Shown: in pieces, positions 3 to 44,475 of the stretch
Layout: each line of letters begins with the position of its first letter
Position numbering within the stretch: the first letter of the stretch is position 1
Source of the DNA: Candidatus Latescibacterota bacterium
Lineage (GTDB): Bacteria > Latescibacterota > UBA2968
DNA length: 64,000 nucleotides
Reading direction: 5' to 3'
Assembly (NCBI GenBank): GCA_965198115.1
Contig: OZ240241.1
Location: forward strand, 7,648,001-7,712,000
The notes under the pieces: model-generated
Seen by the model: only the letters and a program-made list of their open reading frames with translations
The model's database searches: none
Told to the model about the DNA's origin: nothing
Program-made: the position numbers and the translations under genes

Positions 3-3000
3 CGTCTTCTCCGTGTTAACGTCACACCAGACAGCCCGACGGAAGCCCCGATCATCGAGCACATCCAGATGGTGGGCAACGACCTCGTCTCCGGTGCCGA
101 CGGCGACTCCTTCATCCTGTTCATCGATGACCCGCGATTCCGCGTGCGTGTCTTCGACCGGCGCATCGAGCCAACGCCTTTCCCTAGCGCCTACGTGCCG
201 GAAAATGCTCTGATCACGGGCCTCGACGGCTCAAGTCTCGATTTCGACGATCTGCGCGACGGCACGCGAATCGAAGTGATCGGGACGGACTCGGACGGCC
301 GTCTCACGGTTTCTGAAGTCCACGTCGTAGGCGGAAATGTCTTCGTGGGCGAAGGCGTCCTCGAGAGCATCGACGTCGCCAATCGCCTGCTCTTCCCCGC
401 GGCGGACCCGCCGCAGCATATCGATCGTCACGCCTTCATCGTCGATGCCTTCGGCAATCAGATCGATTTGGAGACAGCTGCACGTTTCATCGAGGAGAAT
501 GATAATCTGCTCCTCGTTGCCGAAATCAACCCGTTCGGTGAGGGGCTCGTGTCGCTCGCGTTCATCGACCCGAACTTTGGGCGTCCGCCAGGTCATAACG
601 AACAGATGTTCTGGACTGACCAGGTCGAAATCAACGTCGAACAGCGCCTCTTCATCTTCAGACAGGAAGGTCCCGTCCGTCTTGCCGATGATGCTGTCAT
701 CACCGGCACCGACGGCGAACCCCTGACCATCGAAGACCTCCTACCGGGCATACGTGCGTTCGTGCGAGGCGAGGAATTCGGCGAAGATGTCCTTATCACA
801 GCCATCACACTCATCCCCAACATCGATAGCGCGGACCTGGTCGCCGAGGTCGGAGACTTCGACGAGGACGGCATCGCGAACGATGTCATCGTCGAACTCC
901 GCGATCAGAACGGGAATCCGATCCAGCTTCCCCTTCGCATCTTTGTCGATTTCAACCATCCGTTCGAGACACGCTCCGGCCACATTCTGACCGACATACC
1001 GGCCGGTCCCCACGTGATTCGCCACGAGGTCGCCTCGAGGCCTGAGATTCACGATGAAGCACGCGTCTTCATAGGCGAGCGCGTCTCGACGTTGAGCGTG
1101 CTCGAAACGGTCCCCGCCGACGGAGCGACGGGTGTCCCCGTCGCAACCGACCTGCGCATTACTTTCAGCGAAGCCGTGCAGCAGTTCGGCGATTACGTTT
1201 CGGTCGAAGGCGACATTCATCCCGAACCCCTCACGCGTGACGAAGACATCGGTTTCACGCTGGAGGAGGAAGGCACCATCCTTGTCGTCCAAAACCTCGT
1301 CTTCGAGGAAAACACGACCTACACGCTCGTCATCTCATCCGCCACAGGCAGGGATGGTGGCGTGATGATCGACCCGATCCACGTTCAGTTCTCCACCGGC
1401 GAGAGCCTTCGCGAGCTGGGGAGCCTCACCGGCACGGTTACGCTGAACTCAGACTTGAGGTTCGTGGGCACGATCAGGCTCTTCAACGAAGAAGGCGAAC
1501 AGGTCCAGGAAGCACCGGTCTCCAGCTCGGGGAACTTCGTGTTCAACGCCCTGTTCGAAGGCACGTATCGCCTCGTCGCGGATGCCACGACCGAAGACGG
1601 TCGTGCCGTCAGCAGTGTCTACCACGATGAGATCGAAATCGGACCGGGCGAGGTGCTCGGCGGGTTCAACATCGTGCTCGAGCTTCCCGACGCGCCGGCA
1701 CCAGGCGGTGGTGAAGGAAATGAAGGAACGCTCGTCCAACTGGATCTCGACACACGTTCGGGCAACCAGGGTCTCGACAATGCGCGTGCGCTACCCGATG
1801 CGGATGTGAAGGTCACCGTTTACGCCGTAGACGTTCAGGACGTCATCGGCTACAACGTGTCTTTCGCCTACGATTCCACTGCCGTGTCCTTCGTCGGCGT
1901 AGACGAGGGGACGAGCGATGAAATCAACCTGCTCAAGCAGAACAGCGGTCTCGCCGTGACACTGCCGCCCATCGTGGGGGCGGGAAGCGTAGAGTTCGCA
2001 GGGGCGATTCTCGGGGCTGCCCAATCCCAGTCCGTTTCCGGAGAGGGCGTTCTGGGTGTCTTCCGATTCAAAACGAAAAACGACTTCGCGGCCCCGACGG
2101 AATTCCTCGTCCCGCGTGTCCTGCTTCAGACTTCTGCCAACGCCGACACCATCGACACATTAGCCCGGGCGGCCATCGATCTGGCCACTCAGCGTATTCT
2201 GCTCGGTCTCACCGCCAATCCCGATACGATTCGAGCCGACGGTCGCACGCGTTCGGCACTCAGGGTCGGTTTGAAGGATGCCGACAGCAATCCCATCCTC
2301 GAATCGACCTCGGTTCGCTTCGAAATCGTGACCGGCAGGGGCACGCTGGCACAGACCGAAATCGTCGCGTCCGGCGGCAAGGCCGAAGTCGATCTATACG
2401 GCAGCTCTTCGGGGTTGGTCACCGTCGAAGTCAGTGTCGACGGGGCGTCCCCTGAGCGTGTCAGCATCTGGCTCGAGGCGCCACCCGTCATCGGCACGGG
2501 TGCTGTCGGTCCGATCGTGCTCGACCTCGATCTCGAGGCCGGCGACCAGGGCCTGCGCGAAACCTCGAACCTCAACTCGGGTGACGAGGTGGCAATCGAT
2601 CTCGTGCTGACCGACGACCTGGCCGAGGGTCTATCCGGGTTCGAGATTCTCCTCCTCTACGACGAAACCGCCTTGAACTTCTCACGGTTCGAAATCGGCG
2701 AAGTCTTCGACGGTGCACTGCCGCTCACATCGACCGGGATCGACAGTCTGACGATCAGCGCGGCGATGCTCGGAAACACGACGACACGCCCCTCCGGTAG
2801 CCTCGGCCAGGTCGTGTTCGAGATAGGAGAAGGCTTCGGCGACGAAGTTTTCATTCGTCTCGACCGTGGCCAGCTCGGCGGCCCCGATGGCACCGTTCCC
2901 CTCGATATCGGACCAAGCGGGGCCACAATCCTCCTGGGTGGGCAATCTGCCGCCACGCCAGATTTCGATGGCGACGGAACGGTTGGATTCACCGATTTCG

Positions 3001-3821
3001 TCCAGTTCGCCGGAGCGTTCGGCTCTCGTGACGGAGACAATCTCTACGACGCTCGATTCGATCTGGACGGAAGCGGCGACATCGGCTTTCCCGATTTTGT
3101 CACGTTCGCCCAGGTCTTCGGCGGTCCAGCCTCGAAACGAACGAGGCTTGCCAAATCGGCGAGCACAATCGAGCTCCAACAGGTCACGCGGTTTGTCGAA
3201 GATGGCACCGTGGCACTCGACCTGAGCGCGTCCGGTGAGTTGGCGGGCTATGATTTGACCGTCGTCTACGATCCTGCGAGCGTGGAAATCCTCGGCGTGA
3301 CGTCAGAAATCGCGTCTCTCCTGTCCGCAGGGAATGATCCGGCACTGATGGAGGAGTTGACGCCCGGACGTCTTCGGATCACCGATTACGGTTCGGAGTG
3401 GTACGGGGAAGACGCCTTCATTTCCATCGTCGCACGTCCGATTGGCAACAGTGTGCCCACGCTGGACATCGTGGACGCGACGCTCGCCACGGAATCGGGC
3501 ATTCGAACAGCATCCGTACTGCACCAGATCGACGACCGCCCGACGGTGACCGAATTGGGGCGGAACTTCCCCAACCCCTTCAATCCAGATACGGTCATTC
3601 CCTTTGCGCTCTCCGAGGGTGGCCGCGTTCAGATCGTCGTCTACAACGTGCTCGGACAGGAAGTCGTCCGCCTGGCAGACGATCAGTACACAATCGGTCG
3701 TCACACCGTCGTCTGGAATGGGAAGGACGCAGTGGGCCGGTCAGCTTCGAGCGGACTCTACTTCGTTCGAATGGTCACCGCAGGGACCAAGGCTACGAGA
3801 AAGATGACCTTGGTCAAATGA
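3..3821 (+). CDS. Large multidomain surface/scaffoldin-like protein, 5'-partial: DUF5666-like repeats, SbsA Ig (Big_5), carboxypeptidase-regulatory-like, cohesin-like domains, invasin Big_1, dockerin-like EF-hand pair, C-terminal FlgD-Ig/T9SS-type sorting domain
   Basis: Frame is open from base 3. Motifs: ITGLDGSSLDFDDLRDGTRIEVIG and ITGTDGEPLTIEDLLPG; VLETVPADGATGVP..ITFSEAV; LDLDTRSGNQG and LDLDLEAGDQG ahead of cohesin-like YD..xL/V.F strands; DFDGDGTVGFTDF..FG..FDLDGSGDIGFPDF..FG; LGRNFPNPFNP..VYNVLGQEV..SGLYF. Confidence 0.85.
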   Translation, partial: RLLRVNVTPDSPTEAPIIEHIQMVGNDLVSGADGDSFILFIDDPRFRVRVFDRRIEPTPFPSAYVPENALITGLDGSSLDFDDLRDGTRIEVIGTDSDGRLTVSEVHVVGGNVFVGEGVLESIDVANRLLFPAADPPQHIDRHAFIVDAFGNQIDLETAARFIEENDNLLLVAEINPFGEGLVSLAFIDPNFGRPPGHNEQMFWTDQVEINVEQRLFIFRQEGPVRLADDAVITGTDGEPLTIEDLLPGIRAFVRGEEFGEDVLITAITLIPNIDSADLVAEVGDFDEDGIANDVIVELRDQNGNPIQLPLRIFVDFNHPFETRSGHILTDIPAGPHVIRHEVASRPEIHDEARVFIGERVSTLSVLETVPADGATGVPVATDLRITFSEAVQQFGDYVSVEGDIHPEPLTRDEDIGFTLEEEGTILVVQNLVFEENTTYTLVISSATGRDGGVMIDPIHVQFSTGESLRELGSLTGTVTLNSDLRFVGTIRLFNEEGEQVQEAPVSSSGNFVFNALFEGTYRLVADATTEDGRAVSSVYHDEIEIGPGEVLGGFNIVLELPDAPAPGGGEGNEGTLVQLDLDTRSGNQGLDNARALPDADVKVTVYAVDVQDVIGYNVSFAYDSTAVSFVGVDEGTSDEINLLKQNSGLAVTLPPIVGAGSVEFAGAILGAAQSQSVSGEGVLGVFRFKTKNDFAAPTEFLVPRVLLQTSANADTIDTLARAAIDLATQRILLGLTANPDTIRADGRTRSALRVGLKDADSNPILESTSVRFEIVTGRGTLAQTEIVASGGKAEVDLYGSSSGLVTVEVSVDGASPERVSIWLEAPPVIGTGAVGPIVLDLDLEAGDQGLRETSNLNSGDEVAIDLVLTDDLAEGLSGFEILLLYDETALNFSRFEIGEVFDGALPLTSTGIDSLTISAAMLGNTTTRPSGSLGQVVFEIGEGFGDEVFIRLDRGQLGGPDGTVPLDIGPSGATILLGGQSAATPDFDGDGTVGFTDFVQFAGAFGSRDGDNLYDARFDLDGSGDIGFPDFVTFAQVFGGPASKRTRLAKSASTIELQQVTRFVEDGTVALDLSASGELAGYDLTVVYDPASVEILGVTSEIASLLSAGNDPALMEELTPGRLRITDYGSEWYGEDAFISIVARPIGNSVPTLDIVDATLATESGIRTASVLHQIDDRPTVTELGRNFPNPFNPDTVIPFALSEGGRVQIVVYNVLGQEVVRLADDQYTIGRHTVVWNGKDAVGRSASSGLYFVRMVTAGTKATRKMTLVK

Positions 3822-3840
3822 CAACGTGAAACGGCATCAC

Positions 3841-3869
3841 CGCAGGGGCGGTTTGAAACCGCCCCTGCG
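3841..3869. repeat. REP-like perfect palindrome
   Basis: CGCAGGGGCGGTTT-G-AAACCGCCCCTGCG between convergent genes. Confidence 0.65.
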
Positions 3870-3890
3870 TAATCCACACTACCCCACACA

Positions 3891-5834: not shown

Positions 5835-6264
5835 TAGCACAAATGTAAAACCACCATTTTCGATTTATGGTTTTAACATTCTCTAGCATTGCTTCACCTG
5901 CGTTCTGGATCGTGTCTTTCTTGAACTCCAAGCATGATGAAGATGAAGATGAAGAAAGATAATGTTCAAAGAGCGTAGAAGGATCAATTTGCTGTATATG
6001 GCCATGTGCGCATCCAATCAAACAAAGACCTATCGAGAGCAAAAGAGAACCTGCCACCCAAAGAAAATCAGTCTCCATATGTAAATCCAGTGCTTTTAAC
6101 GCCACAGGAAAAGCCAATACCGACGGGAGCAACAAGGCTAGCAACTTCTGAAGGCGAAGATTCATTGCATCCAACAACTTCTGTGCAACTTCATAAGAAT
6201 TGACAGCCAACTCATAGATCAAATCTACAGACGGAAATTCTTTCTCGTCATTCATGCGAAGCAT
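5770..6264 (-). CDS. IS passenger membrane protein (about 3 TM segments)
   Basis: Overlaps the transposase stop; hydrophobic stretches LLALLLPSVLAFPVAL, FLWVAGSLLLSIGLCLIG, WWFYICAIISF. Confidence 0.7.
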   Translation of the reverse strand: MLRMNDEKEFPSVDLIYELAVNSYEVAQKLLDAMNLRLQKLLALLLPSVLAFPVALKALDLHMETDFLWVAGSLLLSIGLCLIGCAHGHIQQIDPSTLFEHYLSSSSSSSCLEFKKDTIQNAGEAMLENVKTINRKWWFYICAIISFCSSVIFLILWASGMLEY

Positions 6265-7139
6265 CCTTTCACGAAGGAATCAAACGCCCGCTTGTTCTTC
6301 CGGTTGTTGTATTTGTAGCACGCCTCAGCCACGTAGAGCGGTGTAAACCGCTTCGAGTAGTGATGGTGGGAACCATACCAGGCTCTCTTGAGCAAAGACC
6401 ACACGCCCTCGATGGTGTTCGTATGAATGTCGCCGTCCGAATAGTGTCTCGCGTGCTGAATCACCGCGTGATTCATGATGCGACGGACGACATTGTAGAC
6501 CCCATATTCGTCCGTGATGAGCCTGGACCCGTCAGGATCGATGGCACGCCTGATGAACTGCAACACACCCTTACCCGAGAGATCATCCGCAACCTCGGCC
6601 ACGACCTTCCCTGAACGCTCCACGGCTCCGATTACAGCCGTTTTCTTCGTACCCCGCCCCCTGGGGTTCTGCTCGTCATCGTCGCGCTTGTTGCGCTTCC
6701 TGGGCCGCCCACCGACGTAGGTCTCGTCGGCCTCGATGATACCACGAAGTATGATTTTCCCCTGCTTGCTGGCCATTTCTGATCGGATACGCTGTTGCAT
6801 GTACCATGCTGTCTTCTGGTTCAGGCTCAGATCGCGGGCGAGCTGTGGACTGGACAGGCTTTTCTTTGCGTTCACGATAAGGGCAACAGCGGCAAACCAT
6901 TTCGGCAAAGGAATGTGCGTACCCTGAAACATCGTACCTGTCAACACGTTGAACGTTGACTTGCACGCGTGGCAATTCCAGCGGTTTACGTGCTTCGTCT
7001 CGCTCTTGCGGGCACACTCGTCTACCACGCCGCATCGGGGACAGAACGGATCATCTCCGAATCGGACCTTTTCCAGATGATCGATACACGCCTGCTGTGT
7101 CGGGAACTCTTTTGCTATGGTCATAAGGTCCATTCTCAA
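6252..7139 (-). CDS. IS1595-family DDE transposase
   Basis: CPRC..CHAC zinc ribbon, HTH, IEADETYVGG, LITDEY, HTNTIEGVWSLLKR. Confidence 0.95.
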   Translation of the reverse strand: MRMDLMTIAKEFPTQQACIDHLEKVRFGDDPFCPRCGVVDECARKSETKHVNRWNCHACKSTFNVLTGTMFQGTHIPLPKWFAAVALIVNAKKSLSSPQLARDLSLNQKTAWYMQQRIRSEMASKQGKIILRGIIEADETYVGGRPRKRNKRDDDEQNPRGRGTKKTAVIGAVERSGKVVAEVADDLSGKGVLQFIRRAIDPDGSRLITDEYGVYNVVRRIMNHAVIQHARHYSDGDIHTNTIEGVWSLLKRAWYGSHHHYSKRFTPLYVAEACYKYNNRKNKRAFDSFVKGCFA

Positions 7140-9859: not shown

Positions 9860-11434
9860 CTATGGCGACTGTCCAAAGGATCGCGCGAAACTCAGAAAGT
9901 CTGGGAATCCCACAGACCCATCCTCATCCAGGTCATAGAGCGATCGATATCCCGGGTCGCCGGAACGCGTGCCGAACGACGACGCGAAGAAAAGGAAATC
10001 GTCGAAGTCCACCATCCCGCTGCTGTCAAAGTCCGCCTTGCGGATCTTGGCAGGATCCCCTTCGTCCTCCTGGAAGGACAGGCGAATCCTCGCCCACGTT
10101 TCCTCGGTTCCGACCGAACCCGGTTCATCTACCGTCACCACGTGACGACCGCGCAGGGACAGCCCACCGATCCCCTCGAGCTTGGGTAGAGCCGCTTCGA
10201 CCACCACAGAGTCACCGGGCGCCAAAGATCGTTCCCACAGCGCATCCGTAAAGCCCCTGCCATCCGACCACCGCCAAACGTCCCCCCGACTGTCCGAGAG
10301 AACAAGATCGAATTCCTCCCCCGAGCGATACATCATTCTGAGCCTGTCTCTCGTAAGATTCCAGATCGCGTAGACGGCGACCACCGAGTCCCCTCGAGCC
10401 TGCACCCGAAGCGTTCGCCCAAGCCGGCGGATCGGAGGGACATCGGTCGAATCACCCACAACAACACGAATCGACGACTTTGTCTCCTCGAGGGTCAACC
10501 CGTTCGGCAATGCTCCATCGACCGTCAGGTAAGCATCTAGAACAAGAACACGGTCGGATACGGGACCGACCTGCCGCAGGTCAATCGTTTCCTCGAACCT
10601 GAACGTATCCTGTGAGGCGAACATCGTATCCAGCACGGTTGCAATGAAGAGCTTGTTCATGCCCCACGTCCACAGTCGACGCTCGGAAACAGGATCGACG
10701 ATCGCAAGGTCGTAGCGTTGCCCGCTCGGAAACCGAACCGGGATAGGCTCGCCAGACAGGTTCGTCAATTCATAAGAAACGTGTACACCATCGGTCGCCG
10801 TGTATCGGCGTCTGTCAGAACGAACTCGGACCCCGACCCTACGTTCTGGTTCCAGAAAAACAAGTCTCGCGAGTTCGTAACTCTGTGGGCCGGCGATCGT
10901 GATCTCCTGCCACTTGATCAGACCGACTGCCGGCGCGAACCAGAGATCTGTCGTCCCTGCGTCGGCCAGACCATCTCTCGGCCGCACCGCGAGATGGATC
11001 ACGTCAGAATACGTCCCAAGAGGGACCGAAAGTGTCGCACCACGATCCGCCACGGTAAACATCGATCCGCTCACCAGATCGTCATCCAATCCGGAAACCG
11101 TCCACGTTTCGCCGACGCTTGCTTCCAGATCTATCAGCAGCCGTCTTCCCCCATCCTTCACCTCGAACAGCTGGCCCGCCTCGGTCATACCAATGACGCG
11201 TGGGCCAAACGGTCCATCCCACCGGTAGAGATCAGCAACAGGATTCAGCGTCACGGTCCTCGCGATCTCCGTAGGCTGACCGACGAACGTGCTCGACAGC
11301 CCGTCACCCGTCGGGAAGTAGGGCGTTTGCGCCCCAGCGGGGTGAATCAGGAGCACCCACGCGATGAGAGTCGAGAACACACCTCCCCCGGTCCGAACCA
11401 AACGATTCACGAATAAATCCCTTCGAATAAGCAA
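9860..11434 (-). CDS. Secreted protein with two BsuPI-like (intracellular proteinase inhibitor) domains and a C-terminal dockerin-like EF-hand pair
   Basis: Signal peptide ..LLIHPAGAQ; FPSGQRYDLAIVD..LWTWGMNKLF and YRSGEEFDLVL..VWRWSDGRGFTDAL..LAPGD; DFDSSGMVDFDDF..FG..DLDEDGSVGFPDF..FG. Confidence 0.8.
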   Translation of the reverse strand: MLIRRDLFVNRLVRTGGGVFSTLIAWVLLIHPAGAQTPYFPTGDGLSSTFVGQPTEIARTVTLNPVADLYRWDGPFGPRVIGMTEAGQLFEVKDGGRRLLIDLEASVGETWTVSGLDDDLVSGSMFTVADRGATLSVPLGTYSDVIHLAVRPRDGLADAGTTDLWFAPAVGLIKWQEITIAGPQSYELARLVFLEPERRVGVRVRSDRRRYTATDGVHVSYELTNLSGEPIPVRFPSGQRYDLAIVDPVSERRLWTWGMNKLFIATVLDTMFASQDTFRFEETIDLRQVGPVSDRVLVLDAYLTVDGALPNGLTLEETKSSIRVVVGDSTDVPPIRRLGRTLRVQARGDSVVAVYAIWNLTRDRLRMMYRSGEEFDLVLSDSRGDVWRWSDGRGFTDALWERSLAPGDSVVVEAALPKLEGIGGLSLRGRHVVTVDEPGSVGTEETWARIRLSFQEDEGDPAKIRKADFDSSGMVDFDDFLFFASSFGTRSGDPGYRSLYDLDEDGSVGFPDFLSFARSFGQSP

Positions 11435-12457: not shown

Positions 12458-12465
12458 GAGTGGTG

Positions 12466-13230
12466 GTGGCCTATCTCGACCCATCGTCAGTCGCACACTA
12501 CAACGAAAAGGGATTCGTCCTCGTACGTGATGTCTTTACGGCCGAGGAGGTCGAGATTATGCTCGATGCCGTCGAGTCGGGCGATCGGGTTGCCGACACG
12601 ACCAAAGGCCGTCTCGATGGGGATGGTCTCACGTCCCGTCTCGCCATCTGGCACGACCTGGGCAACGACGTGTGGACCGCGGTTTCGACCTCTCCCCGCA
12701 TCGTCAACAGCATCCGAATCCTCCTCGGCGAAGAAGCCGCGTTCTTCCACGGCAAAATCGTTTTCAAGGACGCCCACGAAGGCGGCGCTTGGGAGTGGCA
12801 CCAGGACTACGGCTACTGGTACAACCAGGGCTTCGCCTTTCCACGAATGATCAGTGCCTCGATCGCGCTCGACCCCGCGACAATCCAGAACGGATGTTTG
12901 CAGGTGCTTCCCGGATCGCACCATCTGGGGCGCCTTGACCACGGTCGCGTCGGCGACCAGACGGGCATCGACAAGAATCGCCTGGATGCTGTCGTGCCCC
13001 TCTTCGAGCCCCTACACTGCGAGATGAATTCTGGCGACGCGCTCTTCTTCCATTGCAACCTGCTTCATACATCCGAAGCCAATCTGTCGGACCGTCCGAG
13101 ACGATCTTACATCATCTGCTACAATGCGCTGACCAATCCTCAGTTCGCGGAGACGCAGACGTCAGACCATCGGCCTTGTCCTGTGTCGTCCGACGACTCC
13201 ATCCTGAAAGCCGGCGAAATCCTCGTCTGA
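12466..13230 (+). CDS. PhyH family dioxygenase
   Basis: YNEKGFV, WEWHQDYGYW, NGCLQVLPGSH, FFHCNLLH; AGGAG RBS before GTG. Confidence 0.9.
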   Translation: MAYLDPSSVAHYNEKGFVLVRDVFTAEEVEIMLDAVESGDRVADTTKGRLDGDGLTSRLAIWHDLGNDVWTAVSTSPRIVNSIRILLGEEAAFFHGKIVFKDAHEGGAWEWHQDYGYWYNQGFAFPRMISASIALDPATIQNGCLQVLPGSHHLGRLDHGRVGDQTGIDKNRLDAVVPLFEPLHCEMNSGDALFFHCNLLHTSEANLSDRPRRSYIICYNALTNPQFAETQTSDHRPCPVSSDDSILKAGEILV

Positions 13231-13247
13231 GTTCTGATTCACAAACA

Positions 13248-13289
13248 GAAATCGCCCCCGACGCCGAGACCGGCATCGGGGGCGTTTCA
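13248..13289. terminator. Intrinsic terminator-like hairpin
   Basis: GAAATCGCCCCCGACGCCG-AGAC-CGGCATCGGGGGCGTTTC. Confidence 0.6.
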
Positions 13290-13326
13290 TTATCCCCTCC
13301 CCCCCGAGGACGAAAGGTAGATCCAA

Positions 13327-15712
13327 TCAGGGATGCATCAAAGATCCAAGGAGAGCACGCAGGGGTGCGGGCAACCACGAGTGATTCGGACTATCTGCGT
13401 AAACCCGACGAGATGCGGTCAGGACACGCGCGGGCAATGAGGCGTCGTCGAACGTCACACCGCCCCTCGATCCCGAACGTGGCGTTCGCACCGGTCGCGA
13501 TAGGTCTAAAAACCATCTCGGCGATCGGACCGTCTCCGGCAGTTGAACGCCCCTCTGTAATCGCACTGCCCAGAACGACCCTGCCGGGGGCCTCGTCGTG
13601 AACGAGGAAGAGGGGCGCGTAGGCACCGTTGCTCTCCAGCAGACTCACACGAGGAGCACGTGCGCCCACAAACTCGAATTGCGATGGATCGAACGAGAGC
13701 GTGAAACCCCAACCACGCACGTCTTCGGCCCCTTCGAGCGTGGCCCGTAGAGTCAGACGCCCATCACCATCGTCTCCGACGCGCAGCGACATCCGACCGG
13801 TGCCCTGGGCCGGAGTTGCCGGTTTGGCCGCAGCACTCGAGGGTGCGTCGACCGCGATTCGTCCGAAGTTCGCGGAGAACAGCAGGAAATCAACAAATCC
13901 GATCCGTCCGTCGCCGTCCAGGTCGGCACCCTGTAGATAGCTCACATCCGAGGCGGTCGCTCCAAAAGCCTGCGAGAAATGCAGAAAGTCATTGAAGTCC
14001 ACGCGGGGGTCCACATCGGCCGCGATCAAGCCCTTGATTTCAGCACCCGTCGCGTCGTGGTAGATCGTCACGCTGCCTTCTACGACCAGTGCGAGGCTGC
14101 CGGTCAGGCGAGGCTCGAAGACCGCGTGCTCCGAATCGATCAACAGAACGTCGATCAAGGGCAACTCGCTCGTCACGTTCTTCAGCGCGCGAAGTCGGAT
14201 CGTGGCAAGCGAACCTTCACCCGAAGCACCGCCTGGCCGAGGATCGAATTCACGATCCCGAGGTCCCCGTCCAGCAGTCGACCGGCCATATCGGCGTTGT
14301 ACTGGGCAAAGACATCCCCACGAGACGTCACGTCCACGAACGCGAACGCCGTCGGGTCGAAGATGAGGCGGAGCTGATAAGTGTGCATCTGCACGAACCC
14401 CTCGGCCTCGATTGTCACGTCGAACAAATCGCCGACTCGAACCGCCATCTCGGGCCCCACCATCCGTACCACCGGATCCGGATCCCCCAGCAACGACCGC
14501 TTGAATGTCGGGAAAACGGGTTTGATTCCCGATACCCCCGTGTTGTTCGTGACGTTTGCGGCAGCAAAGTCTCGATCCGTCGCGTTGATCACACCATCTC
14601 GGTTCACGTCGGTGATCGCACTGTAGAGACTGTCGCCAATCTGTTCGAACAGCGCCTGGTGATCGCGTTGAGATCGCTTGCGTCGATCACGTTGTTTGGG
14701 ATGCTCGAACCCGTGCTGTCGTTGAAACCGGCCACGTCGCCGGCCAACAGGAATCCGCGGTCGACATAATCTCCATCGATCACAGGCTGCACGCCGGGCA
14801 GGCTGAAGCCCGGATTGACATCGAGTGTGTCGTGACCGGCCAGATGGCGGTCCAACTTGGCGACGAGGATGAATCTCCCGGACGGAACGCTGTTCAGCAC
14901 GAACTGTCCGTCGACGCCCGTTGTGATGACCTGTACTCCATCGCGATCGGGGTCAGTGTCGTTCAGCAAGAAAAACGGGTCGTCGACTTCGCCGTAACTA
15001 CCCACCTCACGCAGGAAGAAATCGACCGTGTCGGCGGATACGGCCCGCCCCTGGAGGGGGACTGTACCTGTCACCACACCACGTGGCACGATCGTCACAT
15101 TGATTGGGGGTGGTACGCCTGCTACAATGTCGGTGATCGTCTGATCGAGCATCCGGGTTCGGCGGGGATCCTGGTTATCGATCGAAATGTTCGACGCTAC
15201 CGCCGGGCTACCGGACAGCGTCTTGGCCTTGAAGTTCGCAAACGCGCGCCTGCACGCCGTCGAAGAAGGTGAGACCCGTGGTCTGATCCGTGTAGATGAA
15301 CTCGTAGGTCAGAACGCCGTTCACGACTTGTGCAATCTGGTCGACGTTCGAGGCACTCAGCTGCGTGTTAGTCCCGAGCGTGAACGGCTGAATGCCCGAT
15401 GTGCTCGCATCCGTATCGATCGCTTCGAACAGATCGTTATCCAGCGACATGAAGATGTTGACGATATCGATTCGTCGGCCGGTCGCACTCCCGTCGTCAG
15501 GCACGATAGGTACGCTGAGAGTGTCGTCCTCTACCGCGAAGAGTTTCGGCGGTACGATGAAGCGTGCAGAAGTCGCCGGACTCGCGGGTACCACGCCCGT
15601 AAAGGTGATCCGACCGGGCGCCTTGACGAGTGGCGAGAACCCAAGGAAGTTCGCGGGCTGACCACCCGAAATACCGAAGTCCCCGTTCTCGATCCCGAGA
15701 TACACGAAGTAA
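13327..15712 (-). pseudogene. Fragmented cohesin/dockerin surface protein, 5' end removed at ISAzo13
   Basis: At least four frameshifted pieces: carboxypeptidase-reg-like (TTGVDGQFVLNSVPSG), dockerin (GDV..NVIDASDL..DVNRDGVINATD), cohesin (YQLRLIFDPTAF; WGFTLSFDPSQFEF), EF pair VDFNDF..FG..ADLDGDGRIGFVDF. Confidence 0.8.
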
Positions 15713-15769
15713 GGGTTTGCCACGAAATAAGTGCTGCACTTTTCAAGGTAATGATCTTACGCTCGGAGT

Positions 15770-16978
15770 GTGGACGTCGAAACTCTCCGAACGAAGTATG
15801 AAGCCTTGGCTCCGGTGCTGACGGAACGCACGCGTCGTCTGTGGGCCGCCACGGAAGCCGAAGCGTTGGGTCACGGTGGGATCGCGATTGTGGCTCTGGC
15901 GACAGGAATGTCCAGAGAGCGGATCTTTCGTGGCATTCAGGAGTTGAGGTCGGACGAACCTTTGGACCCGGCTCGCATCCGGCGTCCAGGCGGCGGTCGT
16001 AAGCGGAAGGCCGACACGGACCCGACGCTGTGGCAGGACCTGAATGATCTGGTCGAGCCAACGACTGCGGGGTCGCCTGACGACAATCCTCTGAGATGGA
16101 CATCGAAGAGCACTCGCAAACTGGCCGCCGAGTTGCAAGCGATGGGGCATTCGGTGAGCCCCAGGATCGTTGCCAATCTCCTGCACGAACACGATTACAC
16201 GCTGCAGGCGAATCGGAAGACAAGGGAGGGATCTGCACACCCGGATCGGGACGCTCAGTTCGTTTACCTCGATGATCGGATTAGCCAGCAGCAGCAGCAG
16301 GGCCTTCCCGTTATCTCGGTGGACACCAAGAAGAAAGAGTTGATCGGCGACTTCAAGAATCCTGGCCGAGAATGGCGACCCAAGGGAGACCCGGAGCGTG
16401 TGAAGGTACACGATTTCATAGTGCCTGCTCAGGGCAAGGCGATCCCTTATGGAGTGTATGATCTGAGCCGTGATGAAGGCTGGGTAAGTGTCGGTATCGA
16501 TCACGACACGGCCAGCTTCGCCGTGAATGCGATCCGAAGTTGGTGGAAGAACATGGGACGGCCCGCCTACGGCACTTCGACGCATCTGCTAATCACGGCG
16601 GACGCAGGCGGCAGCAACGGCGCCAAGACGCGGCTGTGGAAGTGGGAGCTGCAGCGCTTTGCGAATCGCACTGGCCTGACGATCACCGTATGCCACTACC
16701 CTCCTGGCACTAGTAAGTGGAACAAGATCGAACATCGCCTGTTCTCCTTCATCGCTATGAACTGGCAAGGCAAGCCCCTGGTCAGCCTGGCTGCAACCGT
16801 GAATCTCATTGCCGGAACGACCACTCAAGCCGGTCTCCGAGTACGCTCCGAGATCGACAAGCGACCCTACCCTAACGGGGTCAAGGTGACCGATGAACAG
16901 ATGACCCAAATCGATCTCACTCCGCACGATTTCCACGGCGACTGGAACTACACGATCCGGCCAATGGCTCAACATTGA
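15770..16978 (+). CDS. ISAzo13-family transposase
   Basis: ERTRRLWAATEA..GHGG, PLRWTSKS, ISVDTKKKE, LITADAGGSNG, HYPPGTSKWNKIEHRLFS. Confidence 0.95.
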   Translation: MDVETLRTKYEALAPVLTERTRRLWAATEAEALGHGGIAIVALATGMSRERIFRGIQELRSDEPLDPARIRRPGGGRKRKADTDPTLWQDLNDLVEPTTAGSPDDNPLRWTSKSTRKLAAELQAMGHSVSPRIVANLLHEHDYTLQANRKTREGSAHPDRDAQFVYLDDRISQQQQQGLPVISVDTKKKELIGDFKNPGREWRPKGDPERVKVHDFIVPAQGKAIPYGVYDLSRDEGWVSVGIDHDTASFAVNAIRSWWKNMGRPAYGTSTHLLITADAGGSNGAKTRLWKWELQRFANRTGLTITVCHYPPGTSKWNKIEHRLFSFIAMNWQGKPLVSLAATVNLIAGTTTQAGLRVRSEIDKRPYPNGVKVTDEQMTQIDLTPHDFHGDWNYTIRPMAQH

Positions 16979-16996
16979 GATCGACCGTTTATTTAT

Positions 16997-18416
16997 GGCT
17001 ATATCTGGATCTCTCAACGAGATGAAGTGGGTGAAGGTGCCGTGGTTCCTGGCATGGGGGCGCGGTTAGCGTGTGCGGAACCTCTTCGGAATCTGCTCAG
17101 GGATGTTTATGTCTCCGACGGTAAGGAAGATCATATCGTTGAATGCGTCGAGTGTGCGGAATCCGCTGGCTCGGTTCTTGACGATTTGGACGATTCGGTT
17201 GAGGCCTTCGGCGATGGCGTTGGTAAGACGCGTGTTCACGAATGCGAGGACGCCGAAGAAGTGCTGTCGCAGGGTCCTGACGAACTTTCGCAGGGGTTCA
17301 AGTCGACTTCTGAGTGCGGACGTCGTCCAGCATTTCAGGAAGCGTTCGGCAGCCCAGGGCGCTTTGTATTCCCAGAACTGCTCGAACTCGTCCTTGAGTC
17401 TCCAGGCTCTATAGATTCGGTAGTTCGCCTTCTCCAGTGCTTTGAGTGTCCGAGTATCCCCTCTGGAGCGTGTCGCTGAGTGCCGGTAGAGGAGCCATCG
17501 GAGGCCCTTCATGGCTTTGCGCTCATCCGGGGCAGCTTTACGCCACTGGTCCTTACGGACCTCGTCAACGGCGGCATTGAGAGCCTTGACGATGTGAAAG
17601 CGATCGAGGACCAGCTTGGCATTCGGACAGTGTTCCTGGATGGCTCCGATGTAAGCTTCGCTCATGTCGCAGCAGGCCCACTCGATCTTGGATCTCTGGT
17701 AGGGACTGAGAGCCTCTGTGAAGAACCGATCGATCGTTTTACGCGCCCTGCCGCGGCCAACCCACACCACGCAGGAGCGGTCCAGATCGTAAACGAGCGT
17801 GGCGTACCTGTGACGCTTGGCGTAGGAGATCTCGTCGATCCCGATGGTTTTGAGCCCTCGGATACGATGACCTTCACGAAGCCGCGTGATGGATCGGTGA
17901 CGGAGATCCGACAGCGTCGAGGCAGAGATGCGCAGTAACTCGGACGCCGCCTTCTGCGTCATGGTCTGGCAGTAGCGCAGCATGGCATACTCGAAGCGAT
18001 ACGTCACCCGAGAGAACCGCTCCGCCCACGGAATCTCCTCGACCACACGACCGTGGGTAGGACACCGAATCTCCCGAGGATGGTAGAGAAGCCAGACCCT
18101 CCACCCGCACACCGGAATGTCACGCCACCGACGCGGATGGGGCATTGTGCGGACGATTTTACCTCGACGGCCGCACTCCGGACAACAACAACCATTCTTA
18201 TGTGGCTTTACGGCGATGACGAAACAGCTTCTCCCCTCAAACCACCAGCTGACAACACGGAACCCCTTGAATCTCAGCAGTTTCGATAGTAATCTGCTCC
18301 CGGTCATAGGTCGCACCCCCTTCGCTTTGATTGTCCTACACACACAACCAAGCGTAGGGAACGATCTATGACCTTGTCATTCTATAGTTTCACCGTTGAG
18401 AAACCCGGATAGAGCC
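16997..18416 (-). mobile_element. ISL3-family element, copy A of the tandem dimer
   Basis: IRs GGCTATATCTGGATCTCTCAACG and CGTTGAGAAACCCGGATAGAGCC. Confidence 0.95.
17066..18343 (-). CDS. ISL3-family transposase (start may be ATG 18307)
   Basis: CPECG zinc finger, IGIDEIS, CCDMSEAY, DRFHIVK, TNAIAEGLN. Confidence 0.95.
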   Translation of the reverse strand: MCRTIKAKGVRPMTGSRLLSKLLRFKGFRVVSWWFEGRSCFVIAVKPHKNGCCCPECGRRGKIVRTMPHPRRWRDIPVCGWRVWLLYHPREIRCPTHGRVVEEIPWAERFSRVTYRFEYAMLRYCQTMTQKAASELLRISASTLSDLRHRSITRLREGHRIRGLKTIGIDEISYAKRHRYATLVYDLDRSCVVWVGRGRARKTIDRFFTEALSPYQRSKIEWACCDMSEAYIGAIQEHCPNAKLVLDRFHIVKALNAAVDEVRKDQWRKAAPDERKAMKGLRWLLYRHSATRSRGDTRTLKALEKANYRIYRAWRLKDEFEQFWEYKAPWAAERFLKCWTTSALRSRLEPLRKFVRTLRQHFFGVLAFVNTRLTNAIAEGLNRIVQIVKNRASGFRTLDAFNDMIFLTVGDINIPEQIPKRFRTR

Positions 18417-18424
18417 ATTTTTTT

Positions 18425-19844
18425 GGCTATATCCGGATCTCTCAACGAGATGAAGTGGGTGAAGGTGCCGTGGTTCCTGGCATGGGGGCGCGGTTAGAGT
18501 GTGCGGAACCTCTTCGGAATCTGCTCAGGGATGTTTATGTCTCCGACGGTAAGGAAGATCATATCGTTGAATGCGTCGAGTGTGCGGAATCCGCTGGCTC
18601 GGTTCTTGACGATTTGGACGATTCGGTTGAGGCCTTCGGCGATGGCGTTGGTAAGACGCGTGTTCACGAATGCGAGGACGCCGAAGAAGTGCTGTCGCAG
18701 GGTCCTGACGAACTTTCGCAGGGGTTCAAGTCGACTTCTGAGTGCGGACGTCGTCCAGCATTTCAGGAAGCGTTCGGCAGCCCAGGGCGCTTTGTATTCC
18801 CAGAACTGCTCGAACTCGTCCTTGAGTCTCCAGGCTCTATAGATTCGGTAGTTCGCCTTCTCCAGTGCTTTGAGTGTCCGAGTATCCCCTCTGGAGCGTG
18901 TCGCTGAGTGCCGGTAGAGGAGCCATCGGAGGCCCTTCATGGCTTTGCGCTCATCCGGGGCAGCTTTACGCCACTGGTCCTTACGGACCTCGTCAACGGC
19001 GGCATTGAGAGCCTTGACGATGTGAAAGCGATCGAGGACCAGCTTGGCATTCGGACAGTGTTCCTGGATGGCTCCGATGTAAGCTTCGCTCATGTCGCAG
19101 CAGGCCCACTCGATCTTGGATCTCCGGTAGGGACTGAGAGCCTCTGTGAAGAACCGATCGATCGTTTTACGCGCCCTGCCGCGGCCAACCCACACCACGC
19201 AGGAGCGGTCCAGATCGTAAACGAGCGTGGCGTACCTGTGACGCTTGGCGTAGGAGATCTCGTCGATCCCGATGGTTTTGAGCCCTCGGATACGATGACC
19301 TTCACGAAGCCGCGTGATGGATCGGTGAAGGAGATCCGACAGCGTCGAGGCAGAGATGCGCAGCAACTCGGACGCCGCCTTCTGCGTCATGGTCTGGCAG
19401 TAGCGCAGCATGGCATACTCGAAGCGATACGTCACCCGAGAGAACCGCTCCGCCCACGGAATCTCCTCGACCACACGACCGTGGGTAGGACACCGAATCT
19501 CCCGAGGATGGTAGAGAAGCCAGACCCTCCACCCGCACACCGGAATGTCACGCCACCGACGCGGATGGGGCATTGTGCGGACGATTTTACCTCGACGGCC
19601 GCACTCCGGACAACAACAACCATTCTTATGTGGCTTTACGGCGATGACGAAACAGCTTCTCCCCTCAAACCACCAGCTGACAACACGGAACCCCTTGAAT
19701 CTCAGCAGTTTCGATAGTAATCTGCTCCCGGTCATAGGTCGCACCCCCTTCGCTTTGATTGTCCTACACACACAACCAAGCGTAGGGAACGATCTATGAC
19801 CTTGTCATTCTATAGTTTCACCGTTGAGAAACCCGGATAGAGCC
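18425..19844 (-). mobile_element. ISL3-family element, copy B of the tandem dimer
   Basis: 8-bp spacer ATTTTTTT to copy A; whole dimer flanked by TSD TTATTTAT (16989-16996, 19845-19852). Confidence 0.95.
18494..19771 (-). CDS. ISL3-family transposase
   Basis: Near-identical to copy A, with a few substitutions. Confidence 0.95.
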   Translation of the reverse strand: MCRTIKAKGVRPMTGSRLLSKLLRFKGFRVVSWWFEGRSCFVIAVKPHKNGCCCPECGRRGKIVRTMPHPRRWRDIPVCGWRVWLLYHPREIRCPTHGRVVEEIPWAERFSRVTYRFEYAMLRYCQTMTQKAASELLRISASTLSDLLHRSITRLREGHRIRGLKTIGIDEISYAKRHRYATLVYDLDRSCVVWVGRGRARKTIDRFFTEALSPYRRSKIEWACCDMSEAYIGAIQEHCPNAKLVLDRFHIVKALNAAVDEVRKDQWRKAAPDERKAMKGLRWLLYRHSATRSRGDTRTLKALEKANYRIYRAWRLKDEFEQFWEYKAPWAAERFLKCWTTSALRSRLEPLRKFVRTLRQHFFGVLAFVNTRLTNAIAEGLNRIVQIVKNRASGFRTLDAFNDMIFLTVGDINIPEQIPKRFRTL

Positions 19845-40513: not shown

Positions 40514-40689
40514 CGGAAGTCTGATTCTTGTTCAGCTGCAGGACCATCATCGACCTGGCCAATCGCGACTTACCAAAACGTCCCTGCGCACAGCACAGGG
40601 ACGAGGATTCCGTGTTTTCAATAAGAAAGCGACCGTGGGTCGGAAGGATCTAAGGTTTCTGTACTGCCTCAATACTCGATTCTCGATAC

Positions 40690-42018
40690 TCAATCCTCGA
40701 TTTTGGCTTCCTCCACCGCCTTCCCAATCGCCTCCACCAAGCCATCGATGTGTTTTTCTTCTGTCGGCAGGCAGATCGCATTCATCGCCATGCCCTGCGA
40801 TAAATAGTACCCTTGCGTGATCAAAGACAGGAACACCGCCTTCGCCGTGTCCTTGTCAGATCGGGCCATATCGCGATACGTGCGCACCCGCTCCACCCCG
40901 AAGTGTATGCTGAACACGGACCCGGTCACGACGACGTGCGCGGTCATGCCGATCTTTTCGAACAGCGCATCCAGGCCTTTCTTGAGCCTGATGCCAAGAC
41001 CGTTCATATGCACGTGTGCCTCGTCCGTCAATTGCTCCATCGTCGCGAGGCCAGCTGCCATCGCCACCGCGTGCGAGCTGTGCGTACCGCTCTGGAAAAC
41101 CGTAGCGCCACCCTTCGTATTGTCCAACTGATCCATCACGTCTGCCCGCCCGCCAAAGGCCCCGACCGGAAACCCCCCACCGACGATCTTCCCGTAACAC
41201 GACAGATCCGGCTCAATCTCCATATAGCTCTGCAACCCGCCTCGGGCCTGCCGGAATCCGACGATCTCGTCGAAGATCATCAGCATCCCCAGTTCCCTCG
41301 TTATCTCCCACACGCGCCGGACGAATTCGTGTCGTTGCGGAATGATCCCCGCTTTTGGATCCATGATGACGCACGCCAGCTCGTCCCGGTAGCGCGACAG
41401 CAGCCGCTCGACGTTCTCATCGTCGTCGTAGGGCAGAACGACAACGTCTTCGTGTGCGCGCGGGGCCATTCCGCCGGCCGTCGGCACGGCGTTCGGCTCA
41501 TCGGCTTCGCCCACGTCGTCGAGCGACGGCGAAGTGCTGACCTCCACTGCGTCGTGGCTCCCGTGATAGCCACCCTCGAACTTGGCAATTTTCGGTTTCC
41601 CCGTGAACTGACGCGCCAGCCTGATCGCGTGCAGCGTCGCCTCCGTCCCCGAGTTGACGAATCGCACCCGGTCGAGAGATTTGACACGATCGCACATATG
41701 CTGCGCCATCTTCGTCTCGACCCCAGTGGGTCCGCCCAACGCGATCCCCTCGCTCAACTGCCCCCGCACTGCGACCACAACTGCAGGATGGTTGTGTCCG
41801 AGAACCTGTGCTGTATGGTGATTGCAGAAATCGATGTAGGTCCGACCATCCACGTCGTCCAGCTCACAACCGGACCCACGTCGCCACGTGATCGGATAGG
41901 GCGGATAGAAATACGCACCCTTCGACGCGCCCGCGTTGACCTCACGTCCCTCCTCGAACAGCTTCAGCGACTTTGGTGTCAGTTCCCTATATCGTGCTTC
42001 GATTGCCTTGATCCCCAT
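40690..42018 (-). CDS. Class III aminotransferase (glutamate-1-semialdehyde aminomutase-like)
   Basis: DVDGRTYIDF, LGHNHP, RFVNSGTEA, KFEGGYHG, IFDEIVGFR, YGKIVGGGFPVGAFGG. Confidence 0.9.
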   Translation of the reverse strand: MGIKAIEARYRELTPKSLKLFEEGREVNAGASKGAYFYPPYPITWRRGSGCELDDVDGRTYIDFCNHHTAQVLGHNHPAVVVAVRGQLSEGIALGGPTGVETKMAQHMCDRVKSLDRVRFVNSGTEATLHAIRLARQFTGKPKIAKFEGGYHGSHDAVEVSTSPSLDDVGEADEPNAVPTAGGMAPRAHEDVVVLPYDDDENVERLLSRYRDELACVIMDPKAGIIPQRHEFVRRVWEITRELGMLMIFDEIVGFRQARGGLQSYMEIEPDLSCYGKIVGGGFPVGAFGGRADVMDQLDNTKGGATVFQSGTHSSHAVAMAAGLATMEQLTDEAHVHMNGLGIRLKKGLDALFEKIGMTAHVVVTGSVFSIHFGVERVRTYRDMARSDKDTAKAVFLSLITQGYYLSQGMAMNAICLPTEEKHIDGLVEAIGKAVEEAKIED

Positions 42019-42080
42019 ATCCTCACCTCGGCCAGTGCAGGGACCTACTTTGGTCACTTGTACGGGTCAATGGTCACCGG

Positions 42081-42833
42081 TCAATTCAGTTTTAGTATCC
42101 GCTTCGCATTCTGCCCCAGCACCATCCGTTTCGCATCATCGTCGATATCCGCCGTAATGATCTTACCCAGCTGGGACCGCGGATCCATCAATGGGATATC
42201 CGACCCGAACAGCACGCGATCCGCGCCCGCCTCCTCCACGAGGCGCTCGATCACCCCCGGCTCCCTGAACGTCGAACACGTCTCCAGATACACATTAGGA
42301 TTCGCTTGGGCCGCTTCGATCGACTGCGTGCGATACGGCTCCGAATTCCCCGAATGACCGATCACGAATTGCACGTTCGGGAATCGCCCGGCGATCACGC
42401 CCACCTGCACCGGCTGACACGTCGCTTCCTGACCTGTATGCGTGATCAATGCCAGGCCTCGTTCATCCGCGAACCCGTAGATCGGGTCCCAGACAGAATC
42501 CGTCAACGGCCATCGCGAATACGGTGGATAGATCTTGATGGCCGGGAACCCCAGTTTATCGATCGATCGTTCGAGCTCAGGAACCATCCGTTCCGGCATC
42601 AGCGGCGAGACATACGCGAAACCGATGAACCGGTCCGGGTTCTTGGCCACGAAGGCCGCTGTCTCGTCGTTGCCCGTCGTCCCGTCAGGATGGAAGATGT
42701 TGAACAGACAACTCCGATCGATCCCCACCGCATCCATCGCGTGAAGGAACTGCGCAGAGTCGTCGTCCATCTCGTAGATGTCCCAACGTCCGGTGTGCCC
42801 GTGAAAATCGATGATTTCTTGGCCGTCAATCAT
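42081..42833 (-). CDS. Amidohydrolase_2 family protein
   Basis: IDFHGH, IKIYP, ITHTG, VIGHSG, RVLFGSD.P. Confidence 0.9.
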   Translation of the reverse strand: MIDGQEIIDFHGHTGRWDIYEMDDDSAQFLHAMDAVGIDRSCLFNIFHPDGTTGNDETAAFVAKNPDRFIGFAYVSPLMPERMVPELERSIDKLGFPAIKIYPPYSRWPLTDSVWDPIYGFADERGLALITHTGQEATCQPVQVGVIAGRFPNVQFVIGHSGNSEPYRTQSIEAAQANPNVYLETCSTFREPGVIERLVEEAGADRVLFGSDIPLMDPRSQLGKIITADIDDDAKRMVLGQNAKRILKLN

Positions 42834-42921
42834 TCTTTTTCGCCGTCAGAGGCGGCGCCTACCCCGCATCCTTCATCTCAGTGGCTGCCTGGTTTTAGCA
42901 TCTTCTCCAGACGACGTCCAT

Positions 42922-43706
42922 TCATTGCCCTAGTATCTTTTCCAAGTTCCCCGCACAAATCGCCGCCAAATCCTTCTCGTCAATGGACAAGTGATTCAGC
43001 ATATACAGCATCGGGCCCATCGCATACCGCGGGAAGTAGGATCCGTAGATCAGACGTTCGGCTCCGATCTCTTCGACGAGCCGTCCATCCCCCTCAGGTT
43101 CTCGTAACGGCTCAATTCGAGGACAGCGTGCGGCGGCGCTCGCAGCATCGGGCGGAGCACCAGACTGTGCGTGTAATGTGCGCCGACGAGGACGAGTCGA
43201 AGATTCGGATAATGTCGGAGAGTTTCGACGATCTCGGTCGATGGAGTGTCCGCCAGAGACATCCAGAGTGGAATCCTTTCGTCAACCAGCCAGGACAGGG
43301 CGTCCCCGTAAACCCACTGGACGAACGACAACCGTGACACCTCGGTGCTATGGAATCGAACGCTGGAAACGAGACCGTCAGCGTGCAGACCCGCAATGTG
43401 GCTGAGCGAATCGGCATCGGGCCCGATCACCTGCTGGGGGACGAGCCCGTTGTTCCCTTCCGTCCACCGCGCCAGCGATTCGTTTCCCCGAATCGCACTG
43501 ACGAGCTCCCCTTCGCAGGCATACACGACCGCTCGGTCGACCCCGTGTCGGTTCATCTCCGCCAGAAGCTGCTCGGGCCCTTCGTACGGGTAGGCCCGGT
43601 CCTTCCGGTGGCCGACCCCGATATTCGCGTCGAAAACGGCACGCGGGATTTGAAGCTCAGACCTGACATAGGCCACAAGATCGCCTTCAAACAGGCGAAC
43701 GTCCAA
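42922..43706 (-). pseudogene. Amidohydrolase_2-like protein, frameshifted near 43085
   Basis: FDANIGVG, EMNRHGVDRA; tail GAERLIYGSYFP..GNLEKILG is in another frame. Confidence 0.75.
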
Positions 43707-43823
43707 TAAAAGCTGCGCCAGGCTTCCAAATAACTGAGGCGCTTCTCAAAGAGAAACGCCCCAGCAGATCATCCTATCCTTCGTGTCTTCGCGCAGGAGC
43801 CTGCACTGAGCGGAGTGTGTGAG

Positions 43824-44475
43824 CTATCCTCCTCCAAACACAGTCGCAAATTGGAGAAAGTCCGCAAAATCGACCCGACCGCTCTCGTCCAGATCGAACA
43901 GCGCCTCCGTAGATCCGAATGCAGGCGCGAACAGCAGAAAATCCGCGAAATCGACACCACCGTTCGCGTCGAAATCACCAATCAGCGGGACATCAATAGC
44001 GGCGAGCAGCGACGCGATCGTCTCGCTCGCGCGTTCGATCTGGGGCTGACTCCTGGGGCTCTGGAACTGAAGAATCCCCTCGGGGTCCACGACCCAGAGC
44101 CATCCACCGCACCCTTTGCAAGCACACCCAGCGCCTCAGACGCTCTCATCAACAGCGGAAAACTGACCTGCGTCACCTCCTGGTAGAGCCTCAGCTGCGT
44201 CGCACTCCCGTTCCACACGTCCAGACCCAGCACCTGAACTTTTTGGGGGTTGTTGGCGTTCCAGATCTGTGTCTCTACGGACGGACCCGTCCCGAAGCAG
44301 AGGTGTCAGTCGTAGCCCATCAGGTAGAGAACAAGAACCTTGCCCCGGAACTCCGAAGGCGTATAGATCTCTCCATCCAGAGCCCGGAGGGCAAACTCAG
44401 GCACCGGCTCTCCGACATCAGCCATTAGCGGGTTCGCCGACAGGAAAACGAGGAACCAACCGTTTAAGAAACGCC
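43824..44475 (-). pseudogene. Secreted UxxC selenoprotein redoxin (TlpA/AhpC-TSA fold) fused to a dockerin-like EF-hand pair; start removed by IS256, one frameshift near 44100
   Basis: VGEPVPEFALRALDG..SEFRGKVLVLYLMGYD-TGA-HLC..VQVLGLDVWNGS..FPLL..WVVDPEGIL; GDFDANGGVDFADF..FG..FDLDESGRVDFADF..FG. Confidence 0.85.
44273..44302 (-). promoter_or_regulatory. Bacterial SECIS element
   Basis: Lower stem CUCUGC/GUAGAG, bulge UUCG, upper stem GGACG/CGUCC, apical loop GGUC starting 18 nt after the UGA. Confidence 0.8.

Follow-up and report, generated by a model that had tools for sequence, protein, structure and literature searches.

This study concerns a 64,000-nucleotide stretch of DNA from a Candidatus Latescibacterota bacterium (contig OZ240241.1, positions 7,648,001 to 7,712,000; here called the window) and a small protein module that occurs in it four times. 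The module is a doubled calcium loop with a helix after each loop, and its sequence marks it as a type II-like dockerin that is predicted to bind cohesins, rather than as a calmodulin-type EF-hand. Dozens of signal-peptide proteins in this lineage bear it. We lean toward the reading that the dockerin is a borrowed export-and-anchor tag, which would bind a small adaptor made of a signal peptide, a cohesin, and a C-terminal type IX secretion system (T9SS) tail, and which replaces the T9SS tail on orthologous proteins.

The dockerin module and its carriers

A pattern scan of the window recovered seven of the eight half-repeats of the module. Our first profile was seeded with 15 copies from the genome, including three of the four window copies (the copy at 13.9 kb was excluded), and the four window copies score between E = 1e-12 and E = 4e-22 against it. 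By pattern scan and profile, the copies sit where an earlier reading of the DNA from its letters alone (the sequence-only reading) had placed them:

2961 to 3122 (2952 to 3122 as a domain), forward strand: dockerin copy 1, type II-like, in protein A (pattern, profile, PDB match)
9872 to 10033, reverse strand: dockerin copy 2, type II-like, at the C-terminus of protein B (pattern, profile)
13862 to 14023, reverse strand: dockerin copy 3, in the remnant of protein C (pattern, profile)
About 43830 to 43976 (43830 to 43980 as a domain), reverse strand: dockerin copy 4, type II-like, short-linker form, at the C-terminus of a redoxin cargo (pattern, profile)

The genome that contains the window (G000) is a single contig of 8.43 Mb and is 100%-complete. 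A profile-based list of carriers across this genome, which the sequence-only reading had proposed, comprises 61 open reading frames (ORFs). Of these, 45 have the module at their extreme C-terminus and seven near the ORF start; in another seven it stands ahead of a cohesin-type domain and a T9SS tail, and the last two are broken copies of that type. Each of 41 genomes from the same family and order contains between 24 and 125 modules, and the module is present in 139 of 151 genomes sampled across the phylum.

When a profile of 48 copies is compared with the PDB, the best match is the type II dockerin 2Y3N_B of Bacteroides (Pseudobacteroides) cellulosolvens, ungapped and full-length (E = 4e-13). 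The next matches are 4WI0 and 4U3S (E = 5e-11), the best non-dockerin match has E = 1e-7, and calmodulins reach about 1e-5 or are weaker. Asp1 is present in 44 of the 48 first repeats and in all 48 second repeats, and Asp12 in all 48 of both. Phe10 is kept in 44 first and 45 second repeats, and Phe20 in 47 and 41, respectively. These phenylalanines match the positions of the 2Y3N dockerin, relative positions 10 and 20, at either of which double mutation abolished binding, as described in the accessible part of the published study (PMC8063739). The 2Y3N pair likewise has hydrophobic residues at 10 and 20 in both repeats and a two-fold symmetry suited to dual binding, but it has Met at position 10 where the present module has Phe. 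Also unlike that pair, the present system is without cellulases or a scaffoldin with the carbohydrate-binding module (CBM) CBM3, belongs to a Gram-negative host with T9SS tails, and is known here from sequence.

A structure model of the module contains two helices, each after a loop (predicted local distance difference test [pLDDT] 81-92 for the block). Helices of at least four residues occur in it only after the loops, and the helix that enters each loop in calmodulin-type proteins is not seen. The sequence-only reading had called the module a dockerin-like tag, and its closest solved relatives, its retained Phe10 and Phe20, and its helix order all agree with that description.

Tail replacement, cohesins, and the adaptor

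Judged by sequence comparison, the dockerin stands where a T9SS tail sits in relatives for three cargo families, including the selenoredoxin of the window. Families f1, f2, and f4 (23 genomes) have 7-29 T9SS tails per genome, versus 45 to at least 103 in f3 and f6 (20 genomes). A near single-copy metalloprotease ends in a dockerin at 12 of 13 loci in f1, f2, and f4 (one truncated), and the same protein in f3 and f6 has a tail at 16 of 17 loci and a dockerin at none. Ten of these tails were recognized by motif and six by Pfam FlgD_ig, and the remaining locus is misframed; the row for G106 is misframed in both the count of endings and the protease tree. In that tree, the dockerin lineages form one side of one branch with support 100/99. 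The tail is probably the ancestral ending because f6 lies outside the class.

The family of the window redoxin has a dockerin ending at all 24 other f1 and f2 loci (25 of 34 matches were examined) and at all four f4 loci. None of 16 f3 loci has a dockerin: nine carry a full tail, one a tail that is probably frameshifted, and three a short Trp-Gly ending, and three are unreadable. Peptidases of family M28 end in a dockerin at nine of 10 loci in this lineage (one weak, one off contig) and in a tail at both f6 loci. Since f3 provided one homologue of the BsuPI protein and none of the M28 peptidase, both families test the replacement weakly. The f3 selenoredoxins at L306, L308, and L310 end in a short Ser-Trp-Gly-x-x-Lys tail, which is neither a full T9SS tail nor a dockerin and is possibly a third sorting tag.

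Pfam Cohesin gives 14 matches in the genome, 10 of them over the cut-off, and an iterated cohesin profile finds 25 domains in 18 ORFs. The most cohesins in any one ORF is three, and the cohesin ORFs have no Pfam match to a CBM. There are two main classes, which are homologous and whose profiles both return cohesins first from the PDB: a "GDQG" class, often directly ahead of a dockerin, and a class located between dockerin and tail. All seven intact tail-bearing carriers have the order dockerin, Lys-rich linker, cohesin-type domain, and tail.

The partner domains are modeled as nine-stranded beta-sandwiches of the cohesin fold. For the modeled cohesin of the adaptor (pLDDT 84), the top 20 VIA matches are all cohesins (Z 9.6-13.3, with the next fold at 9.2). 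The best of these has Z 13.3 and a root mean square deviation of 3.3 over 133 residues, and the best Foldseek match has E = 2e-8. A modeled cohesin piece of protein A best matches a cohesin dyad. Foldseek puts type II cohesins first and VIA puts type I first, within 1 Z. A cohesin-dockerin-cohesin model (predicted template modeling score 0.64) says nothing on which domains touch. These domains had been called cohesin-like from sequence, and the models agree.

A Lys-rich linker (AKP, TKP, AGK) lies shortly ahead of many cohesins, after dockerins and after signal peptides (window positions 3123-3170; loci L188-L208 and L211-L229), and it may be a processing site. Two more cohesin proteins are without a dockerin (L155:350-1864, which is G000:C1:6992349-6993863, and L154:5924-7261). 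One has a tail and lies directly behind a large fused carrier, and the other has a Gly/Pro/Gln-rich repeat and no tail.

The adaptor itself is encoded outside the window:

G000:C1:1278187-1278993: adaptor, consisting of a signal peptide, one cohesin, a T9SS tail, and nothing else

Its best copy is a stand-alone protein in 40 of the 41 genomes, at 47-82% identity, and a fused form is the best match in G019. One genome among the Ca. Latescibacterota records with the best whole-cassette matches also encodes an adaptor, at 60% identity. Across 19 loci that each span at most 20 kb, every one of the 20 extra adaptor copies is accompanied by a dockerin ORF on the same strand no more than 426 bp away, and none of the 56 dockerin ORFs in these loci has the tail motif. 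Ten of the 19 loci were chosen after dockerins had been seen nearby, and the other nine are blind. A dockerin is present in all nine blind windows versus two of 20 arbitrary control windows (p = 5e-6, among genomes that are kin). Several small or hydrophobic strand residues are invariant in 30 adaptor copies and variable in fused copies, and the strands that hold them presumably form the cohesin binding face. The adaptor cohesin is the likely partner of the dockerin, as far as its sequence and gene neighborhood indicate.

Adaptor look-alikes are also present in other phyla. For Zixibacteria, Fidelibacterota, Eisenbacteria, and Ignavibacteria, the ESM Atlas contains clusters of 240-310 aa proteins with T9SS tails, and in some of these clusters 11-32% of the members carry Cohesin. 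Adaptors of this small kind may be widespread.

Window proteins and cargo

The proteins of the window that carry the module, and the features around them, are as follows:

69 to 3821, forward strand: protein A, with Ig domains, three cohesins, a dockerin, and a T9SS tail; its frame has 2127 codons and starts 2.6 kb ahead of the window, which holds the 3' part
1761 to 2198, forward strand: protein A cohesin 1, "GDQG" class (Pfam Cohesin, whole-protein E = 9e-11)
2541 to 2930, forward strand: protein A cohesin 2, directly ahead of the dockerin; no Pfam match alone, recognized by our own profile and a model
3123 to 3170, forward strand: protein A Lys-rich linker after the dockerin, of the kind seen where a cohesin and a tail come next
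3171 to 3540, forward strand: protein A cohesin 3, which is 22% identical to the stand-alone adaptor and belongs to its class
3567 to 3821, forward strand: protein A C-terminal domain of T9SS type A (39 bits against TIGR04183, whose cut-off is 23)
9860 to 11434, reverse strand: protein B, with a signal peptide, two BsuPI domains, and a C-terminal dockerin, without a tail
13391 to 15711, reverse strand: what is left of protein C, with a cohesin at 14215-14472, the dockerin at 13862-14023, and a second cohesin at 13460-13804
15740 to 19771, no strand assigned: an insertion sequence (75 near-full genome copies) and two ISL3 copies (228 in the genome), at the 5' end of protein C
43824 to 44488, reverse strand: selenoredoxin-type cargo, with a signal peptide, TGA-xx-Cys at 44308-44297, and a C-terminal dockerin

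Protein B is the sole unbroken module carrier in the window. Protein A is probably broken in this strain because its signal peptide lies upstream in a different frame. The reading frame of protein C is interrupted at least three times, insertion sequences adjoin its 5' end, and it is without the tail carried by a same-genus homologue. The sequence-only reading had described these two as hosts with several cohesins, one ending in a FlgD-Ig/T9SS tail, and had described the tandem BsuPI protein and the redoxin as small secreted cargos with the module at the C-terminus. All of these domains are confirmed, but both hosts are probably broken and the ResA-like redoxin is out of frame with its own dockerin (break near 44,095), whereas its relatives are intact fusions. 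An assembly error was rejected as the cause of the breaks in protein C and the redoxin: contigs of two runs, probably from the source sample, match positions 12793-15738 and 43300-44303 gap-free and agree with the window there. An RNA run covers insertion sequences and short pieces only, and it shows neither expression nor habitat.

The TGA codon is kept in 23 of 24 homologous redoxin loci, and selB is present. The selenocysteine reading rests on these two observations because the hairpin after the TGA is uninformative, folding no better than shuffles (z 0.11). A redoxin paralogue that is 88% identical (L120; G000:C1:5478912-5479478) has its 5' end cut by the same insertion sequence that adjoins protein C.

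Insertion-sequence regions in the window lie at 6252-7139, 15740-19771, and 44523-51868. At >95% identity, the genome holds 228 copies of ISL3, 75 of the second element, and 32 mutator copies. It is 2-3 Mb larger than most relatives, with >300 insertion sequence copies, and nine of 88 conserved control genes are split in it. This looks like early genome erosion. The system is better read from relatives than from this strain.

We scanned 60 carrier ORFs and 70 of 138 neighboring ORFs with Pfam. Carriers and neighbors include S8, M10, and M28 peptidases, as well as NHL, YncE, Kelch, and BNR propellers, FG-GAP, leucine-rich repeat, and Ig repeat proteins. NCBIfam adds two HExxH metalloproteases and one selenoprotein. 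As the sequence-only reading had stated for the window, no Pfam glycoside hydrolase family was found in these 130 ORFs; one BNR propeller has a below-cut-off glycosylhydrolase match in the NCBIfam scan. With no glycoside hydrolase family on the dockerin carriers and no multi-cohesin scaffoldin with a cellulose-binding module, the dockerin appears from sequence to be a general tag, the mark of neither a cellulosome nor a protective set.

Proposed export route and alternatives

The components of the T9SS, for which the sequence-only reading had suggested a search, include the SprA translocon and the PorV shuttle. SprA is over the cut-off in all 41 genomes. In G000, eight of 12 PorV-family matches and 19 of 20 T9SS tails are over their cut-offs, and one cluster contains a PorU-like protein, a PorZ-like protein, a dockerin carrier, and PorV. 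GspF/PilC was not found in this complete genome, where 13 of 14 controls matched, which leaves the tail-less cargo without an evident type II route. A lone secretin of 845 codons (L210:9687-12221; G000:C1:3327686-3330220) was rejected as a sign of such a route, since its surroundings hold neither a type II cluster nor a pilus cluster. A weak PorV-like match at L152:8894-10111, a few kb from a dockerin-tagged metalloprotease, scores higher against the BamG family of NCBIfam, where it stays below cut-off (122 of 250 bits).

Sequence shows the dockerin module, the cohesin fold, and the adaptor, together with SprA and PorV, the adjacency of the genes, and the replacement of the tail; every step beyond gene content is one that we infer. 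Sec would take cargo and adaptor into the periplasm, where the calcium-loaded dockerin would clip to the adaptor cohesin via Phe10 and Phe20, in either orientation. The adaptor tail would then carry the pair through SprA-PorV, and the PorU-like protein would anchor the adaptor, such that the cargo stays displayed on the surface. Large proteins such as protein A would be a fused form of the pair (dockerin-linker-cohesin-tail), and their extra cohesins may give more sockets. A more far-reaching version, in which we place somewhat less than even confidence, holds that a whole lineage has rebuilt its type IX secretome. A position-independent dockerin would have replaced the covalent tail on dozens of proteins, which would piggyback on one reusable cohesin-tail carrier, and the T9SS would move non-covalent complexes and cargo without a signal of its own. 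In PMC11285876 and PMC9251779, proteins exported by the T9SS are said to require a C-terminal domain of their own.

Several observations weigh against the dockerin identity or the adaptor reading. None of the four window copies reaches the Pfam Dockerin_1 cut-off, although 14 of 22 genome matches do. All 11 proteins that match the GC-type dockerin family NF041540 of NCBIfam, among 31 scanned, have only a weak profile likeness of 17-27 bits (cut-off 29). The PorU-like protein scores 293 of 420 bits (E = 6e-87) and the PorZ-like protein 38 of 260 bits (E = 7e-10), both below cut-off, and GldM, the only GldKLMN member searched, was not found, with its control also silent. At all 30 loci examined for the primary adaptor copy, the nearest 1.5 kb is free of dockerins. 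Among the 17 candidates scored per genome, no stand-alone adaptor was seen in f3 and f6, and a short adaptor-like ORF was seen in one of three f4 genomes. Dockerin genes are nevertheless present in f3 and f6, at 1-32 per genome, and one f3 BsuPI protein carries a dockerin. With all dockerin-bearing proteases on one side of one branch, the swap amounts to a single lineage-level contrast. In addition, the actual receptors could be cohesins of the "GDQG" class, and cargo of >2,000 residues may not pass SprA as a pair with the adaptor.

Three other explanations were considered. The dockerin might be a new T9SS signal that is read directly by a PorV-family shuttle or SprA, with the adaptor exported separately and capturing cargo outside. 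The 45 of 61 carriers with the module at the extreme C-terminus, its replacement of the tail in place, the eight PorV-family genes over the cut-off, and the cluster that joins PorU-like and PorZ-like genes, a dockerin carrier, and PorV would all fit. However, seven G000 carriers and many cargo proteins of relatives have the module N-terminal or internal, unlike a C-terminal signal, and adaptor copies travel with cargo genes, so we regard direct recognition as unlikely. The sequence-only reading had instead proposed that large T9SS proteins with several cohesins, protein A among them, organize the system and display mainly protective cargo. Protein A does combine three cohesins with a tail, there are 25 cohesin domains in 18 ORFs, and PMC8542988 predicts a scaffoldin of similar kind in Ca. 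Stygibacter. Yet the C-terminal cassette of protein A (cohesin-dockerin-cohesin-tail) has a match at E <= 1e-40 in nine of 41 genomes, versus 40 of 41 for the stand-alone adaptor. No protein exceeds three cohesins, and protective proteins are outnumbered by proteases and repeat proteins (beta-propellers, leucine-rich repeats, Ig repeats). Because three of the four window carriers look broken and the cargo extends beyond protective proteins, these scaffolds are probably not the core, and we consider their organizing role quite unlikely.

We assign a very low probability to the proposal of a stand-alone domain that binds calcium or associates with itself, with the tagged proteins periplasmic and the cohesins serving otherwise. 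In Pfam, three window copies have weak EF-hand matches only and one reaches E = 0.009 to Dockerin_1, leaving EF-hand models as their main Pfam matches. Dockerins also exceed cohesins, about 61 to 25, and a ResA-like redoxin is a typical periplasmic protein. Against this, the scores of type II dockerins are eight orders of magnitude better than those of calmodulins, Phe is conserved at the surface positions, the same redoxin family has a T9SS tail in f3, and dockerin genes adjoin the adaptor.

C. thermocellum SdbA (PDB 2BM3) is a single-cohesin anchoring protein with SLH anchoring in the Gram-positive wall. It resembles the adaptor in combining one cohesin with a surface-sorting module, but the T9SS tail here, unlike SLH, would need to provide for outer-membrane crossing as well. 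Non-cellulosomal cohesin-dockerin systems in Gram-negative bacteria have been published as predictions (PMC6461901, PMC8542988; both accessible in part). The cellulosome-like complex of Ca. Stygibacter (Cloacimonadota; PMC8542988), also predicted only, resembles ours in having peptidases that bear dockerins and a cohesin protein that ends in a tail of the T9SS type. It differs in having a 3,755-residue multi-cohesin scaffoldin with a CBM and GH18 and GH57 cargo, whereas we find a conserved single-cohesin adaptor and 24-125 tagged genes per genome, and the accessible text does not describe a dockerin-for-tail swap. The planctosome of Nemodlikiaceae (Planctomycetes; PMC6461901) is likewise a non-cellulosomal cohesin-dockerin system with proposed peptidase display, but its anchoring is proposed via a lamin-tail domain, with no T9SS mentioned in the accessible part, rather than a T9SS tail. 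Cellulosome elements have been reported in Latescibacteria (Farag et al. 2017, as cited in the accessible part of PMC7081726). That report concerns probably the same phylum and extracellular dockerin-type enzymes; the enzymes are interpreted there as cellulosome-affiliated, in contrast to the scanned carriers here, which have no glycoside hydrolase family. Youssef 2015 contains no cellulosome terms, and PMC11557425 has no mention of Latescibacteria or T9SS. In the literature searched, with most subscription papers beyond reach, no dockerin-for-tail swap or adaptor-dependent T9SS export was found.

The replacement of a C-terminal domain by a dockerin on orthologous proteins suggests export in trans, which would be a new use of the cohesin-dockerin pair together with the T9SS. 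If true, this would account for the way in which proteases and eukaryote-like repeat proteins are displayed in a lineage that is abundant and uncultured, and a clip-on surface-display tag for Gram-negative cells could be derived from it.

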